DNA of 64,000 bases from a virus (taxonomy: Duplodnaviria; Caudoviricetes), in the IMG/VR virus record IMGVR_UViG_3300029288_007089, positions 1-64,000 of that record; one strand, written 5' to 3'. This document shows positions 18,057-55,465 of this stretch, in pieces (position 1 is the stretch's first letter; every line of letters starts with the position of its first letter). The position numbers and the translations under genes were made by a program. The notes below the pieces were generated by a model that saw only the letters and a program-made list of their open reading frames with translations, was not told the origin of the DNA and did no database searches.

Positions 18057-18232
18057 GTCACGGTGCGCTATTCTGAGATTCGCCCACTGCAACTGCAGCA
18101 CAGAACCACACCTCGGCGGGATGTCACAGTGCGCTATTCTGAGATTCGCCCACTGCAACTTTTGCGCAACATCCTCAGGCAGAAACACAGTGCAGGTCAC
18201 AGTGCGCTATTCTGAGATTCGCCCACTGCAAC
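18057..18232 (-). CRISPR. CRISPR array 1: three 37-nt repeats GTTGCAGTGGGCGAATCTCAGAATAGCGCACTGTGAC, spacers of 36 and 29 nt
   Basis: Repeats at 18196-18232, 18123-18159 and 18057-18093 (last has one mismatch); directly downstream of the RuvC nuclease and scaffold. Confidence 0.9.
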
Positions 18233-18380
18233 CCCAGTTGCAGTGCCGTGCAAAGCACGGAGTTCGGTCCAAAGCCGCCGCTAGTGGCGCGTTTTGACGC
18301 GCCAGGAACGCCGGGCGTCCCGTCTGGTCTTACGCGCGGCCCCAGGCCCAGGATGTGTGACTGCATCCTGTTCTCAAACC
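18233..18380 (-). ncRNA. Omega/tracr-like scaffold RNA fused to the first repeat
   Basis: Anti-repeat CACTGCAAC (plus 18237-18245) joined by TGGG to the repeat start GTTGCAGTG; stems covary with the second copy at 55211-55357. Confidence 0.8.
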
Positions 18381-19802
18381 TCATTTGGTTGTTAAAGTAC
18401 TGACGTTTGCGAAACTACGATGGAACTCCCGATAACCTCCCTCCCAGTCTGCCTTGCGGTACAGCGCGCGGCGCGCAATGTTCACCGCCGCGTTGTCGTC
18501 AGAGTGGCCGGCATAACCGCACGCGCCGCAAGTCACACTGCGGTCGTCGCGGTCCATGTCCGCGCCGCACTTGTGGCAGATCACCGAACTATAGGCGGCG
18601 AACACGCGCCGGAACGGGACGCCGGCCAGCTTGCACTTGTACTCCAGGATACGGTCGAGCTTGCGGAACCGGCTCACCACGCGCCCACCGCGTACCTGCA
18701 CGTTGAGGTCTTCGACCACGATGCCGGCCTGCGCATTCTGCGCCGCGCCGATCAGCGTATTGGCGAGCGTGTGCAGGATGTTGTCGTAGGCCTTCTGTTT
18801 GTAGTGACGCTTGGTGATCTTCTGCCCGTTGCGCGCCAGTTGTTCGCGTTCCTTGCCGTGCTTAAGCTGAAGCGCGCGTAAGTCATCGTCGAAGTGCCCC
18901 ATCTCCAGCACCGCGCCGGTCCCGTCCACGAGCGCATACGCGGCGGTGTACAGGATGCCCTTGTCGATGCCCAGGTACGCCGCCGGCTCGTAAACGTCGG
19001 GGCACTCAACCTCAAACGTGACGTGCAGCGCATAGCCGGCGTCGCGCTTCACCAGGAACGCCGCCTTCACGCGCCCCGCCCCGTCGCGGCTCGGCTGCAA
19101 GAATTTCGCCTCGTGCCAGCCGTTGCGCCCGATCTCCAACGGCACAAGAATTGCCGAGGCGCTATTGCTCTTGAATACCTCGCCGGTATCCAGGCGCACA
19201 AGATTATCTGCGCTTGCGCCGATGGGCCTTGTCAGTTCATGGCCCTTCGGTAGCAACCACAGCGCCGCGATAAGCTGGCGCTTTTGTGTGTTCCACAAAA
19301 GAGAGAAAAGGCGATTTCGTGCCGCACCATCTGCCCCGCAGAAATAGAGTGGCATGTATTGGCCGCGCATCCGCATGAGCATGAGGTTGCGCGCTTCGTT
19401 GTAGTCGGCTTCGTCGCCGCCTACAAGAACGAAGTCATCAAGCGCATTGTCCACCGCGTCGGGTGCGGGATCGCGCCCTACCGGAAAGCCGGTTGCGCCG
19501 GCCATGCCATCGAGCGCATAGTAAGATGCGAGGTTACCAGCCACGTCCACAAGTAGGCTGTCTTTGGCGCTGGTGTGTAGTGCGGCATTGGGGCGCGGCA
19601 GGAGCGACATTATGGCCTTGCCGTTGTACTTGTCGCGGTACATGCCCTGTTCGCGCAACAAGTCGTCATTGTCGCGCGCCCAGTCCAACATAGCTTGATA
19701 TGCCAGCGTGTATTCACGCAGTGCGTGATCCATCACCGCCGTTTTATGCGCGGAGGGATTGTGGACTTTGAAAATGCAGGTTAGGTGGATAGAATTGCTC
19801 AT
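18381..19802 (-). CDS. tnpB: Compact TnpB/Cas12f-like RNA-guided RuvC nuclease (473 aa), apparently intact
   Basis: RuvC-I YLGIDKG, RuvC-II IVVEDL, CHKC...CGAC zinc finger, RuvC-III HSDDNAAVNIA. Confidence 0.9.
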   Translation of the reverse strand: MSNSIHLTCIFKVHNPSAHKTAVMDHALREYTLAYQAMLDWARDNDDLLREQGMYRDKYNGKAIMSLLPRPNAALHTSAKDSLLVDVAGNLASYYALDGMAGATGFPVGRDPAPDAVDNALDDFVLVGGDEADYNEARNLMLMRMRGQYMPLYFCGADGAARNRLFSLLWNTQKRQLIAALWLLPKGHELTRPIGASADNLVRLDTGEVFKSNSASAILVPLEIGRNGWHEAKFLQPSRDGAGRVKAAFLVKRDAGYALHVTFEVECPDVYEPAAYLGIDKGILYTAAYALVDGTGAVLEMGHFDDDLRALQLKHGKEREQLARNGQKITKRHYKQKAYDNILHTLANTLIGAAQNAQAGIVVEDLNVQVRGGRVVSRFRKLDRILEYKCKLAGVPFRRVFAAYSSVICHKCGADMDRDDRSVTCGACGYAGHSDDNAAVNIARRALYRKADWEGGYREFHRSFANVSTLTTK

Positions 19803-50449: not shown

Positions 50450-50556
50450 TTGCTAAGGGACAACGGAGCGATTTTTTGTTCGCGGTAACAAGCCGCTCTT
50501 TGGCGCAAATCGTTCCGTCCCTTAGCAAGACGCGAACAGCCAGAGGGCGGCTTGTT
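50450..50556 (+). ncRNA. Interlocked three-helix 5' leader RNA upstream of the tnpB remnant
   Basis: Pairings 50450-74/50507-28 (22 bp), 50477-84/50531-38 (8 bp), 50487-504/50539-56 (18 bp). Confidence 0.65.
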
Positions 50557-50572
50557 GTTTAGGAAAATAATC

Positions 50573-50941
50573 ATGCTGGTGCGCAGCTACAAATACCGAC
50601 TGTATCCTACACCAACGCAAGTGCGCCGCTTGTTCGCAATGTTGCGCCTGTCGCGCCTACTCTACAACCACATGCTGGGCTATCGAGAGGAGGAGCACTC
50701 CTCATGGGCGCTAAGCCGCGTAAGACTTCATGATTTCATGAAGCAACGGTTTGCCCGAAAGCTCCGTTATTATGCGGAGAGTGCTATGGCGAACGCTAAG
50801 CTGTGTAAGACGCCGCAATTGCGCGGCGCGGTGGTTAGTTCGCAAATCTCTGCCAATCCGGAGCAGCTGGAGGTCTGCGACGCGACACACTCTGCCGGCA
50901 TCGAAGAAACGCCATATCTGGCGGAGACGGCGGCGCGATGA
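50573..50941 (+). pseudogene. tnpB: Internally deleted IS605-type tnpB (only the N-terminal HTH is recognisable)
   Basis: MLVRSYKYRLYPTPTQVRRL...SRLLYNHML; no RuvC motifs; another frame gives a C-terminus-like RGGALLMGAKPRKTS* ending at 50733. Confidence 0.75.
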
Positions 50942-50956
50942 CCGCCACCGGTGGCT

Positions 50957-51213
50957 GTTGCAACCGTCAACCTCCGGAGGTGGAGGGTGCTAGCACTATG
51001 GACGGTGGCTGGTCTGGGATGGCCGGCGTTGTTGCAACCGTCAACCTCCGGAGGTGGAGGGTGCTAGAGCCGTCAGACTTGCCGAGACGCGCCAAGACGA
51101 ACTTGTTGCAACCGTCAACCTCCGGAGGTGGAGGGTGCTAGAATGCCGCACCTCCGGCCACAGATACGCGGTAAGCGTTGCAACCGTCAACCTCCGGAGG
51201 TGGAGGGTGCTAG
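50957..51213 (+). CRISPR. CRISPR array 2: four identical 37-nt repeats GTTGCAACCGTCAACCTCCGGAGGTGGAGGGTGCTAG, spacers of 37, 37 and 35 nt
   Basis: Repeats at 50957-50993, 51031-51067, 51105-51141 and 51177-51213; orientation inferred from the upstream promoter. Confidence 0.93.
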
Positions 51214-51229
51214 ACACAAAACAGGAGGC

Positions 51230-51547
51230 ATGATGAACGCTCAGAATATTGCCAAGCAGTTGATGAAACACTGCGCTAATGAACCGACGGCAGAGGTTCA
51301 CTGGTACGCCGGCGGGACAGTTGACTACCGCTTCTGGACCGGAGAATATATGCTCACCGTATCGGTGTTCACCAATGAGGAGGACCGCAACGAGGCGGGT
51401 AGGTGGCCGAGCATGGGCGCCGTTGATGGCAGCCGGGGCCTGATAACCGACTACGAAGGTCCCGAATACAGCACCGACGCTGGGGCCGTGCGCGCGGCGA
51501 TTGCATTGATGGAAGAGATGCGACAGGACTATGGGGGTGAGGCATGA
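51230..51547 (+). CDS. Hypothetical protein
   Basis: CAGGAGG RBS, 105 aa. Confidence 0.65.
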   Translation: MMNAQNIAKQLMKHCANEPTAEVHWYAGGTVDYRFWTGEYMLTVSVFTNEEDRNEAGRWPSMGAVDGSRGLITDYEGPEYSTDAGAVRAAIALMEEMRQDYGGEA

Positions 51548-51990
51548 CTGATGACGAACTGCGCGCAAAAGCGCACAGGGTAGCCGAGGCGTTAGGCCTG
51601 GGGCGCGAACTGCCGCGCTACCACTGCGGGCGTTGCGGCAACAAGTGGCTGGTCGAGGACACGCCGCGCTGCCCGGAGTGCGACGCGCACGGCGACGGCG
51701 TGGCGCACATCGGCATGGAATTCAGCGCCATTGACCTGCTTACGGAGGCCGGCGTTGCGACACTGTTGGGAATATTGCGCAAATGGCATATCGGCGTTGT
51801 GCCCGAATGGACCGACGAATGGGGCAACGACTACATGACTTACACGGTTGTCGTTAACCGCAAAAAAGGCAAGCGAAGCTACGCTTCACGGCGTTTTTCG
51901 GGCCGCGCCAAAACCCGACCGGCGGCCCTGGTTCTAGCTGCGCACGCGGCACTGGAGGCGGGATGGTTGTGGGAGTTGGTGCATGAGTAA
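51544..51990 (+). CDS. Hypothetical Zn-ribbon protein; intact paralog of the gene disrupted at 55037-55465
   Basis: MTDDELRAK...CGRC...CPEC...ALVLAAHAALEAGWLWE. Confidence 0.7.
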   Translation: MTDDELRAKAHRVAEALGLGRELPRYHCGRCGNKWLVEDTPRCPECDAHGDGVAHIGMEFSAIDLLTEAGVATLLGILRKWHIGVVPEWTDEWGNDYMTYTVVVNRKKGKRSYASRRFSGRAKTRPAALVLAAHAALEAGWLWELVHE

Positions 51991-53619: not shown

Positions 53620-54990
53620 CACACAAGAGAAGCGACTATACGTGCGCATCACCGCGCCTGACGGTAAAGGCCCCGCCTACATCTGCGCGCCCGCGGACCT
53701 GCCATCTGACATTGAGGACTGGCTGTTCGACGGGGGAGATGAGCCGTATTTGATGGCGGCAGTTTATATGACGCCCGACGAATTTATGGCATTGCCCGAT
53801 TTCGAGGGCTTCTAAACGAAGCGGGTCGTCACGTAGGGCTGCAACCGACGCGTGACGACCCTGGCCTCACAGGAAGCCATCTCTATTGTAACATGCTTCC
53901 TGTGGGGGACATAGCTCACAGGAGGCTATTCATGTACCCGAAACGATGGTGCCAGGCCGCTATCGCCGCGTGCATCCTCGTCATCCTCGCCGCCGCGCTC
54001 GCGCTCCTCGCCGGCCCCGCCGAGGCGCAGGAGCCGACGCCGTGCCCGTGGCCGACAGCGTGGGCGACGGCGGTCGCTACGGAGATCGCCAGCACGCAGC
54101 GCCAGACGCTCATCATGCGCCCTGTGTGCGCGCCGGCAACGCCCGCGCCGGCGGCTGCGCCTGCCGTCACCGCGCAGGTAGAGACCGGCGATACCGGCAT
54201 GTTCGGCCTGCCGCTATGGTATGAGCGCATAGCCGGCATTGTCGCCATCGTTGGCGCGGTATTCCTGGACATTCTGCGCCGGCGGGCGCTGGCGGCGCGC
54301 CGGCAACCGCGCACGCTGGGCGAGCAGATGGGCGTGTACGAGCGGGGTGGGGGAGGGGACAATGTTTGAGCTTGTCATCCTTCCCATCGCCGCTGCCGTC
54401 GCCGGCGTGTGGTTGCTGTTCAAGTTTGTAGACGGCGGGGACCGCGATGCCGTGTACACGCGCCGGCAGGAGGCTGCGCGCATGAGCGGCTACATTGCGC
54501 GCGACACGCCAATGCCGGACGCGGTATATCCACAACCGCAGCCGCACACGCTGCCAGAGGAGCCGCCGCGCCGTGAGTTGCGGCATCGGTATCCGGAGCT
54601 ATCATGGAAATACGAGAACGGGGACTTCCGCGCCGGCTGGGACGGCACACGCGGGCAATACCACGTGACGGGCAGCAACCCACGCACGCAAGAGACGCGC
54701 GTCCTGCTATTCCGCCGGCAGGCGGATATGGAGTGGTGCGTGAAAGAGATGGGGTACAGGGGGAGGCTGCCATGAGCATCAGAAGCCGCATCCTGGAGCT
54801 TGCGTGGCGCAACAAGCCGCGCTGGTACGTGGCCGCGCGCGTCGTGCGCGGCGAGATACAATTCCGCGTGGTTGCTGCGATGCCCGGCGAGAAGCCGGCG
54901 CTAGAGCCAGGCGAGAAGGTGATCTATGGTCCGCGCGAGGCGAAATGGTGCGCCGACACGGAATGCGCGTACTGGGAGCGGGAGTATTGA
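53609..54990 (+). other. Four small ORFs (53609-53815, 53932-54369 secreted/membrane, 54362-54775 membrane-anchored, 54772-54990)
   Basis: Coupled starts with RBSs; hydrophobic N-termini in two. Confidence 0.55.
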
Positions 54991-55036
54991 GCGGCGGGGC
55001 GAGCAGCCCGCACGCACGGCTGGCGAGGAGGTTGCC

Positions 55037-55210
55037 ATGAACGACGAAGAACTGCGCGCCGCCGGCGCGTGCGGCTATGCCGGCCATTCTGACGACAACG
55101 CGGCGGTGAACATTGCCCGCCGCGCGCTGTACCGCAAAGCGGATTGGCCCGGTGGCTATCGGGAGTTCCATCGTAGTTTCGCAAACGTCAGTACCTTTAC
55201 AACAGAATGA
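55037..55210 (+). pseudogene. tnpB: Chimeric ORF: 5' end of a phage gene (MNDEELRA) fused to the last ~48 codons of the 18-kb nuclease homolog
   Basis: GACGYAGHSDDNAAVNIARRALYRKADWPGGYREFHRSFANVSTFTTE vs ...KADWEGGYREFHRSFANVSTLTTK; homology starts at ~55063. Confidence 0.9.
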
Positions 55211-55394
55211 GGTTTGAGAACAGGGTGCAGTCACACACCCTGGGCCTGGGGCTGCGCGTAAGACCAGAGGGACGCCCGGCGTTCCTGGCGCGTCGAAACG
55301 CGCCACTAGCGGCGGCTTTGGGCTGAATCCCACGCTTTGCGTGGCACCGCAACGCAGGTTGCGGTGGGCGAATCTCAGAATAGGCCATTGTGAC
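55211..55394 (+). ncRNA. Second copy of the scaffold RNA ending in a single repeat variant
   Basis: Colinear with the reverse complement of 18196-18380; repeat GTTGCGGTGGGCGAATCTCAGAATAGGCCATTGTGAC at 55358-55394 (4 differences). Confidence 0.85.
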
Positions 55395-55396
55395 CG

Positions 55397-55465
55397 CTAG
55401 TCCTGGCGGCGCACGCGGCGCTGCAGGCGGGGTGGCTGGAGGGGGAGGGAAGTGATGCTGAATAA
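55397..55465 (+). pseudogene. 3' remnant of the interrupted gene (LVLAAHAALQAGWLEGEGSDAE*)
   Basis: Matches the C-terminus of 51544-51990; in frame with the ATG at 55037. Confidence 0.8.

Follow-up and report, generated by a model that had tools for sequence, protein, structure and literature searches.

The phage genome of IMG/VR record IMGVR_UViG_3300029288_007089 (72,653 bp, provirus class, 64% GC) carries two copies of the guide-RNA end of a TnpB-like nuclease locus within the part analyzed here. By the window we mean that part, the 64,000 nucleotides (nt) at bases 1-64000 of the record, to which all positions refer. Copy A adjoins an intact nuclease gene near 18 kb and runs on into a short array of the CRISPR type. 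Copy B (55037-55465), the subject of this work, lies inside a small phage gene, where the 3′ end of the nuclease gene, a complete scaffold, and a single repeat are followed directly by native gene sequence. We put the chance at about one in two that copy B, non-autonomous and RNA-guided, serves for exclusion or homing and that its origin lies in a recombination or repair event involving a spacer and its target. The cassette meets the gene exactly at the end of its repeat, an allele free of it circulates in related phages, its RNA structure is undamaged, and its single-repeat state derives from an array-bearing one. These features fit an RNA that works like the omega-RNA of TnpB elements but is not the end of a transposon.

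Copy B Replaces the Middle of a Phage Gene

Copy B lies on the plus strand and opens with the 5′ remnant of a gene for a 147-residue protein (55037-55064; the ATG and 9 codons, MNDEELRAA), which aligns with the start of the intact alleles on contigs L028 and L032 (contigs of relatives are designated L and sequencing runs of other samples X). The last 48 codons of the nuclease gene and their stop follow (55065-55210, stop at 55208-55210), delimited by alignment to 18381-18526 of the minus strand and to the nuclease of L009; this fragment keeps its own frame and is fused in frame to the gene remnant. The tracrRNA-like part of the scaffold occupies 55211-55357 and is succeeded by a 37-nt CRISPR-type repeat ending TGTGAC (55358-55394, assigned by comparison with the repeats of the family) and then by the conserved tail of the interrupted gene (55395-55465, stop at 55463-55465), which overlaps the start of the gene at 55452-55877. 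The gene frame resumes at 55397 with LVLAAHAALQAGWLE, in frame with the ATG at 55037. In the place of a guide, 55395-55430 is identical to native gene DNA, and the alignments of L026, L027, and L028 start at 55395. An initial annotation of the window had described the nuclease 3′ end, full scaffold, and one repeat within a paralog of the gene at 51544-51990, had taken the first 20 nt of 55395-55430 for a would-be guide that is simply native flanking sequence, and had ended the unit at TGTGAC; all of this stands, the homology to intact alleles resuming at the very next base, 55395.

The same annotation saw a gene interrupted by an insertion. The position and frame of the cassette agree with it, but ∼345 nt of the 147-residue gene (codons 10 to ∼124) are gone and the 330-nt cassette stands in their place, so that the event is a replacement and not a simple insertion. 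At the left junction (55064|55065) the gene sequence ...GCCG is joined to nuclease sequence GCGCGTGCGG with 2 nt of microhomology, and at the junctions of copy B the overlap with either partner is only 2 nt or 0 nt. At the right junction, every alignment in a blastn comparison of relatives with the window begins exactly at 55395, which lies at least 10 nt within a conserved tail module (the W-P-A codons) rather than at a mosaic boundary. GCCG, a motif present at 1.5% of genome sites, immediately precedes each of the two junctions in the intact allele.

Copy B and the 18-kb locus agree at 88% identity over 205 nt, and over the nuclease remnant and scaffold copy B is ∼88-90% identical to copy A and to L009 alike; its peptide resembles the C terminus of the L009 nuclease. 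It is not a duplicate of the 18-kb locus made within this genome, as the sister copy of the initial annotation had implied. Near-identical DNA is held by landfill, sludge, and soil metagenome runs, among them a 249-nt stretch in another sample and study (X6) that is 100% identical to copy B.

The Uninterrupted Allele Carries the Target

Intact 147-residue genes with the same termini occupy the syntenic place in L028-L032, contigs reached by a search with the downstream gene. They share the first nine and the last ∼22 residues with the copy B remnants and lie directly upstream of a homolog of 55452-55877, with an 11-nt overlap as in the window. The uninterrupted allele is present in L026-L032 and in contigs of other samples (X6 and X7); on L028 its matching site falls within 2060-2105. 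L026, which shares integrase-side synteny with the window at 90% identity, starts with GCCG and then the gene tail. A contig from X7 carries 40 nt of the upstream part of the intact allele, ending ...GCCG, and then 198 nt identical to 55395-55592, a perfect match to the guide with GCCG directly 5′. An empty allele, which the initial annotation supposed to exist in related phages, was thus looked for and found; the joint in X7 (55069-55395) is more likely an intact allele with an unaligned middle than a precise loss of the cassette. When contigs of four other runs were compared with window positions 54300-56300, many were found to end at 55064 or at 55394/55395, stops that are expected at the branch points of a polymorphism, and the loose ends in X6, like L028, run on as the intact gene past 55064. 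The locus is polymorphic for the presence or absence of the cassette, with the target behind GCCG in the element-free allele alone. Because the guide sequence stands behind GCCG in the intact allele and behind the repeat in copy B, only the uninterrupted allele would be recognized.

The intact paralog in the same genome (51544-51990, plus strand) differs from the 20 nt after the repeat at positions 2, 5, 8, 11, and 14, all of them third codon positions, as the initial annotation had counted. These 20 nt are therefore diverged coding sequence and not a chance match. The paralog has GCGG in front, not GCCG, and on sequence grounds both it (GCGG, five mismatches) and copy B itself (repeat in front) should be spared.

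Comparison of targets gives YCG, or GCCG, as a tentative candidate for a protospacer-adjacent motif (PAM) or, in TnpB terms, a target-adjacent motif (TAM). The copy B target is flanked by GCCG in three allele types, and that of a related unit on L009 (unit 1, described below) by ATCG or ACCG; YCG occurs at 5% of positions in this genome. The protospacer of L013 spacer 1 (54198-54233, minus strand) is matched at 36/36 nt and has the 5′ flank ..TGCCG. This is the one clear foreign (sibling-phage) target of the family arrays. The spacer also matches a downstream gene of L013 itself, again at 36/36 nt and with identical flanks, a case of self-targeting that may be why this locus lost its nuclease. 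The GCCG at the right junction of copy B fits the PAM reading. No second match to the guides of copy B and of copy C (a third copy, described below) was found within the window at ≤3 mismatches. The spacers of copy A, L008-L010, L019, and L021 and four of the six spacers from X2 and X7 had no match in the sequences compared, and two X2 spacers (X2d and X2e) gave partial matches only, too weak to use.

The genes related to 51544-51990 have conserved termini (M-T/N-D-x-E-L-R... and ...TWPAALVLAAH..AGWL) and swapped middles. Members are 51544-51990 itself and genes on L006, L007, L027 (1476-2000), and L028 (1230-2137), with two tandem paralogs on L028 and, on L027, a DnaN-like N-terminal part fused to the tail of the family. 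Neither the interrupted gene nor its neighbors matched a PHROG, Pfam, or NCBIfam family, and the best explanation is that the interrupted gene is a small, conserved, non-essential phage gene. Pattern scans of IMG/VR returned no relatives of the 148-residue paralog at 51544-51990 or of the nuclease and no match to the scaffold motif. A scan for the junction motif, in which the end of the repeat adjoins the start of the guide, yielded a single match, L033, which was discarded as a chance hit in an unrelated gene without a scaffold.

The Guide-RNA Scaffold of Copy B Is Intact

We aligned 12 scaffolds, namely those of copies A and B, two from L009, and one each from L013, L011, L012, L008, L010, L019, L021, and L024. 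They have in common a fold of four helices, pseudoknot included, made up of hairpin 1 (loop GTCACA), a long stem, a CTTTG hairpin, and the anti-repeat. In this fold 97% of alignment cells are paired, compared with 26-40% in a control with slid partners, and compensatory changes occur at 17 of the 31 consensus pairs. The pseudoknot joins the loop of hairpin 1 to the last six bases of the repeat and itself covaries, with a C-G pair (GTCACA/TGTGAC) in 7 sequences and a U-A pair (GTTACA/TGTAAC) in 5. In copy B none of the 31 consensus pairs is broken, and the differences from copy A in its stems, its anti-repeat:repeat duplex, and its pseudoknot are compensated. By analogy with the native scaffold, which would be transcribed with the nuclease mRNA, copy B would be transcribed with the operon around it. 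Contigs of an RNA run (X16) cover 54712-54962 and 55664-55915 and none covers copy B, although such contigs are uninformative on expression.

The Nuclease at 18 kb

The presumed trans partner of the copy B RNA is the intact gene for a 473-residue nuclease at 18381-19802 (minus strand). The initial annotation had held that an intact nuclease resides in the same genome, and the family comparison agrees, since the RuvC residues D, E, and D and the four zinc-finger cysteines (CxxC pairs) are invariant in a 20-member alignment. Its sole Pfam match is Cas12f1-like_TNB. Against the NCBIfam models it scores 91.5 bits for guided_TnpB, just under the cut-off of 100, 35 bits for IS200_TnpB (cut-off 425), and 74 bits for Cas12f2 (cut-off 450). 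The best fold matches of an AlphaFold (AF2) model, with a mean predicted local distance difference test score (pLDDT) of 85, are AsCas12f and OsCas12f, at a template modeling (TM) score of 0.5-0.6 and ∼15% identity; CasX and the ISDra2 and ISFba1 TnpB proteins come next, and LaTranC is distant at rank 38. Sequence matches in the PDB are all weak (E 2e-8 or worse). The stop codon of the gene leads straight into a scaffold of ∼150 nt whose 3′ part is the first repeat. In copy A (18057-18380, minus strand) the scaffold at 18380-18233 is thus continued by a mini array of three 37-nt repeats (18232-18196, 18159-18123, and 18093-18057), separated by spacers of 36 and 29 nt.

The Solitary State Is Derived from Arrays

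Metagenomes hold well over 100 relatives of the nuclease, and on the longer contigs the neighboring genes are those of phages (ERF, DnaB, SSB, holin, methylases, and a DNA polymerase clamp). Relatives at 39-95% protein identity carry mini arrays of 2-5 repeats (L015, L017, L019, L021, L024, L008, L010, and L009), the repeats being 36-38 nt long and ending in TGTRAC, in ATGAGG (L015), or in a close variant. At 48-95% identity the stop codon and the array are separated by a scaffold that contains the hairpin-1 motif. All close relatives with readable downstream DNA carry a mini array, and the only readable relative without one is L016 (46% identity), where no array lies in the 75 nt before a convergent gene. 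L017 (39% identity) has a split layout, with a tracr-like gene on the opposite strand (L017:2610-2840(-)) that comprises a TTGACA-17-TATAAT promoter, hairpin 1, the CTTTG hairpin, the anti-repeat, and a terminator, and with an array that has its own promoter. Copy B's nuclease remnant falls within the group of its closest array-bearing relatives. Since arrays are spread across the relatives and copy B is nested among them, parsimony makes the array ancestral and the solitary, single-guide state derived. The initial annotation had ordered these states the other way round, from the end of an insertion sequence (IS) to an array, and had seen in copy B a snapshot of the TnpB-to-Cas12 transition; as judged from the family comparison, copy B is not such a snapshot.

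Contigs from X2 and X7 carry B-like repeats in repeat-spacer-repeat arrays with six different spacers, and one contig is 100% identical to the scaffold and repeat of copy B and has different DNA after 55394. The possibility raised by the initial annotation as contrary to its own view, that of a degraded array in place of an IS end, is in spirit what these contigs bear out. The arrays of the family turn over in the wild although the phages are without Cas1, which was not found in the 72.6-kb phage record. As a separate observation, L020 (5377-5650) and L021 (5377-5700) encode an identical nuclease protein and carry different arrays, one with one repeat and a partial repeat and the other with two repeats and a 36-nt spacer.

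Related Solitary Units Share Their Right Boundary

The nuclease protein of L009 is 95% identical to that of copy A. On this contig the nuclease gene leads into unit 1, a scaffold whose middle is divergent and a single repeat. Directly after the TGTGAC of that repeat, a different nuclease allele contributes its last 22 codons, with a second scaffold and an array behind them. The guide of unit 1 (L009:2386-2470) equals the copy A nuclease gene at 23/23 positions (window 18394-18429), behind TATCG, and the adjacent nuclease gene of L009 has synonymous mismatches at guide positions 7 and 13. Such a combination of guide and self-mismatch is the pattern expected of a weapon or a homing element.

On L008 a minimized scaffold of 147 nt, with a short hairpin instead of the repeat duplex and the end TGTAAC, lies between the end of the nuclease open reading frame (ORF) and the regular scaffold; L010 has the same site, empty. 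On L011 some ∼17 nuclease codons remain, and after them come a promoter-like site, a scaffold, and a single repeat that runs into another gene in antisense; on L012 a scaffold lies behind an unrelated small gene. L013, which is 96% identical to window 53965-54779, keeps a scaffold and three repeats (865-1200, minus), and its nuclease ORF has been deleted precisely, the start ATG being fused to the stop. Copy C, the third and minimized copy of the phage genome studied here, is situated beyond the window (68455-68566) and has its own promoter. In this region (L005:4411-4610, corresponding to 68411-68610) a promoter-like TTGTCG-17-TATACT is present, the unit ends TGTGAT, and a short hairpin replaces the anti-repeat:repeat duplex. 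The guide of copy C lies mostly inside a downstream terminator hairpin, and on either side of the unit stands one copy of an imperfect direct duplication, ∼43 nt from a terminator-like hairpin (L005 4368-4410 and 4567-4610).

Among these solo units the right boundary is always at the repeat end, and the left boundary varies, with 48, 22, ∼17, or 0 nuclease codons retained. The initial annotation had asked whether further copies always end at TGTGAC; the place of the boundary is constant, and its letters are TGTGAC, TGTAAC, or TGTGAT. In the independent units of relatives (L009 unit 1, the L008 mini unit, and L011) the repeat end is likewise followed by native DNA. With every right boundary at the repeat end and the left ones variable, random breakage offers no explanation.

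A conserved leader (50451-50566; TATAAT and a long hairpin) precedes three different cargos (window 50451-51214). In this phage the cargo is a gutted N terminus of an IS605-type tnpB together with an array of four repeats unrelated to those of the family; L009 has the family nuclease there, and L013 a scaffold and array alone. The stretch at 50.4-55.5 kb is a mosaic hotspot for RNA-guided cassettes.

Proposed Origin and Action of Copy B

We propose that copy B goes back to a locus with an array in a related lineage of phages. Recombination of an array spacer with its protospacer, or repair of a guide-directed break, would have produced the exact right junction, and the left side would have been closed by an illegitimate join at a 2-nt microhomology inside the nuclease gene. 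The copy B RNA, loaded on the nuclease encoded at 18.4-19.8 kb, would then recognize only phages with the uninterrupted allele. One outcome would be the exclusion of co-infecting relatives; another would be homologous repair from the B-bearing genome, by which the rival allele would be converted to B, i.e. RNA-guided homing. Expression, loading, cleavage, and the choice between homing and killing are the steps that we infer. Two guide-directed cuts were considered as the source of both GCCG motifs and rejected, as such nucleases cleave PAM-distal.

Several points weigh against this account. The left junction also follows GCCG, for which the model gives no explanation. The compensatory changes may all predate the truncation, in which case they indicate an RNA that is undecayed, not one in use. 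No sigma-70-like promoter or terminator was found at copy B, so that transcription would depend on operon read-through, and we likewise infer the production, the processing, and the nuclease loading of its RNA. The PAM is tentative, resting on three targets that are also its source; one partial spacer match has a YCC flank, and CACGT precedes the site of the L008 mini unit in its empty allele. No array was found with a spacer equal to the copy B guide. Finally, copy B within the interrupted gene is documented only in the source sample, and among the contigs of other samples none was seen bridging copy B into the gene tail.

The account may extend to the whole group, a step that we take tentatively and would expect to fail more often than hold. 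Here the temperate phages of the group would run a mutual RNA-guided gene drive, in which flank-guided solo cassettes cut rival alleles and are copied by repair. That some of these cassettes target the nuclease gene of the rival is, within this extension, a possibility of the same tentative order.

Alternative Explanations

The alternative that survives best, although we consider it unlikely, is that copy B is an inert scar, a fragment of a CRISPR locus captured once, when illegitimate recombination or break repair between co-infecting phages ruined a dispensable gene, and now without function. The region is highly mosaic in these phage genomes, the 2-nt microhomology at the left junction is that of an ordinary join, copy B is without a promoter of its own, and the cassette in its interrupted gene is seen in the source sample only, all of which a scar would accommodate. 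However, random breakpoints would have had to fall at the exact repeat/spacer boundary in three or four independent units, at a chance of ∼1/70 each, and beside the same 5′ motif that adjoins a true protospacer. The RNA structure is fully intact and the identical 249-nt stretch circulates elsewhere (X6), and the minimized fixed-guide forms in two phages with nucleases of 72% identity (copy C and L008) argue for selection.

Less probable again is the explanation favored by the initial annotation, that the unit was an IS200/605-like transposon with the repeat as its right end, that a later deletion took the left end, most of tnpB, and the ∼345 nt of the gene, and that the 18-kb array arose by duplication of the end. 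It draws on the precise ends of five independent units (TGTGAC, TGTAAC, and TGTGAT), on a guide that equals the flank with a TAM-like GCCG before the empty-allele target, on the L008 mini unit, which in comparison with L010 resembles a clean insertion of 147 nt, and on the score of the nuclease just under the guided_TnpB cut-off (91.5 versus 100 bits). Yet no Y1 or serine transposase TnpA (PF01797 and PF00239) was found in the 72.6-kb phage record, with positive controls, nor any TnpA domain among the neighbor genes of the relatives, a host-encoded TnpA lying outside both searches. There is no left end, the homology of the nuclease locus starting 2 nt before the ATG and the left boundaries of the solo units differing as described above. 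The gene upstream in L009 does not match the 5′ part that a disrupted resident nuclease would be predicted to leave, and copy B is a replacement. Furthermore, the family is nearly absent from cellular genomes. A search of one genome per species in 185,579 species gave only 5 loci, all on short metagenome-bin contigs and never multi-copy. Arrays throughout the family, except in L016, also make the array older than copy B. We do not, on these results, retain the transposon origin proposed for copy B.

It is also rather improbable that copy B supplies a regulatory or decoy RNA, its scaffold titrating or tuning the nuclease or guiding it to bind the 51.9-kb paralog without cutting. Natural fixed guides with partial matches do regulate genes elsewhere (Cas9 scaRNA, tracr-L, and TldR; see also PMC10705468). 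The paralog here matches 15 of the first 20 guide nt, and the copy C guide is largely buried in a terminator hairpin. Solitary repeat units of phages can reportedly act as RNA anti-CRISPRs. This proposal has to contend with a perfect and properly flanked target in wild relatives, against five PAM-proximal mismatches and another flank in the paralog, with catalytic residues that are kept in the nuclease, and with a guide target that is not a promoter region. An assembly chimera uniting a CRISPR locus and gene ends from two different phages can practically be set aside, because, although other-sample contigs break at 55064 and 55394/55395, which are assembly branch points, k-mer assembly cannot make two joins with overlaps of ≤2 nt, orientation, frame, and synteny are coherent, the independent Logan contigs of the likely source run contain 99% of the 31-mers sampled across 54300-56300, and the same gene product occurs on a 79,477-nt contig.

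Relation to Known Systems

The correspondence between the CRISPR repeat and the 3′ part of an omega-RNA is already an established idea. The present system shares with TnpB and its omega-RNA a RuvC superfamily nuclease, a scaffold that issues from the end of the ORF, and a pseudoknot beside the guide; the copy B guide is the flank, and the unit-free allele has the target behind a short motif. It differs in having no TnpA, no left end, no simple insertion, and a guided_TnpB score below the cut-off, and in that the family is phage-borne and array-associated, with a fixed guide derived secondarily from an array.

TranC systems have been described as array-bearing TnpB-like effectors whose ancestral right-end RNA was split into tracrRNA and CRISPR RNA (crRNA) (Jin et al. 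2025, Cell 188:6283, to the extent relayed in PMC13639567 and PMC13565253), and further TranC clades include one in a phage (bioRxiv 10.64898/2026.03.27.714800). Like these, the locus studied here combines a compact TnpB-like effector of 473 residues with a short array, its repeats 36-37 nt long, places a tracr-like scaffold between the two, and has no adaptation genes, and unsplit (cis-fused) as well as split (L017) RNA layouts are both found in its family. The best explanation is that the nuclease system is of the general TranC type, a likeness drawn from layout. We know of no flank-guided solo scaffold-repeat units with a circulating empty allele described for TranC. Resemblance to Cas12f (type V-F) lies in the predicted fold (AsCas12f and OsCas12f as best matches to the model, TM 0.5-0.6), the miniature size, the predicted need for a tracrRNA, and the Cas12f1-like_TNB domain; unlike Cas12f, the nuclease is phage-carried with no cas1, cas2, or cas4 at the locus, has ∼15% identity to the fold matches, and failed the Cas12f2 model (74 versus 450 bits).

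Virus-borne mini-CRISPR arrays and solitary repeat units were reportedly described by Faure et al. and by Medvedeva et al. in 2019, and RNA anti-CRISPRs are said to have been reported by Camara-Wilpert et al. in 2023. Such viral mini arrays are likewise short or reduced to single repeats, are without adaptation genes, and have spacers against related viruses, as with L013 spacer 1, whereas here there is an effector of the system's own, the solo unit has a full scaffold, and the "spacer" is continuous with a gene of the host phage. Varble et al. (2019) are said to have observed spacer-protospacer recombination with transduction of bacterial CRISPR loci as the outcome. In that process, too, CRISPR DNA can become fused to phage DNA through homology of spacer and target, with a seamless repeat|target junction, but here a phage gene would end up with a stable and possibly selfish cassette. 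Type V-K CRISPR-associated transposons reportedly use a delocalized crRNA (Saito et al. in 2021), a fixed guide outside the array for homing, like copy B; here there is no transposition machinery.

Homing driven by TnpB and by endonucleases, including the "non-restorative homing" into co-infecting phages and plasmids, has been reviewed (PMC13565253). With the free-standing homing endonucleases of phages, to which intronless homing and localized marker exclusion are ascribed (PMC13565253), copy B has in common its presence or absence in a conserved gene, a target found only in the rival allele, and self-protection through site differences. Unlike theirs, recognition here would be by RNA, and the cassette is non-autonomous, without a nuclease of its own. 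As far as we can tell, what is new is a derived, solo, flank-guided cassette whose empty allele is documented in natural populations, related units that target the nuclease gene of a rival, and split, fused, minimized, and solo RNA layouts within one phage-borne family.

On the practical side, the family offers a compact 473-residue nuclease with natural single-guide scaffolds, two of them minimized. The step from TnpB with its fixed guide to array-guided Cas12 is now being worked out through TranC, and this family displays the RNA side of that step in natural variation, with an empty allele circulating in the wild and a join at the repeat end behind a PAM-like motif, a combination that is rare for such inferences. 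If the copy B RNA is active, it would constitute a natural RNA-guided homing or exclusion cassette among phages, and array-type systems would be able to fall back to omega-RNA logic. Were the phages indeed to run a mutual gene drive, recombination between repeat and target would turn spacers into flanks and back, phage arrays without Cas1 would gain and lose guides without an adaptation module, and the step between omega-RNA and CRISPR array could run both ways.

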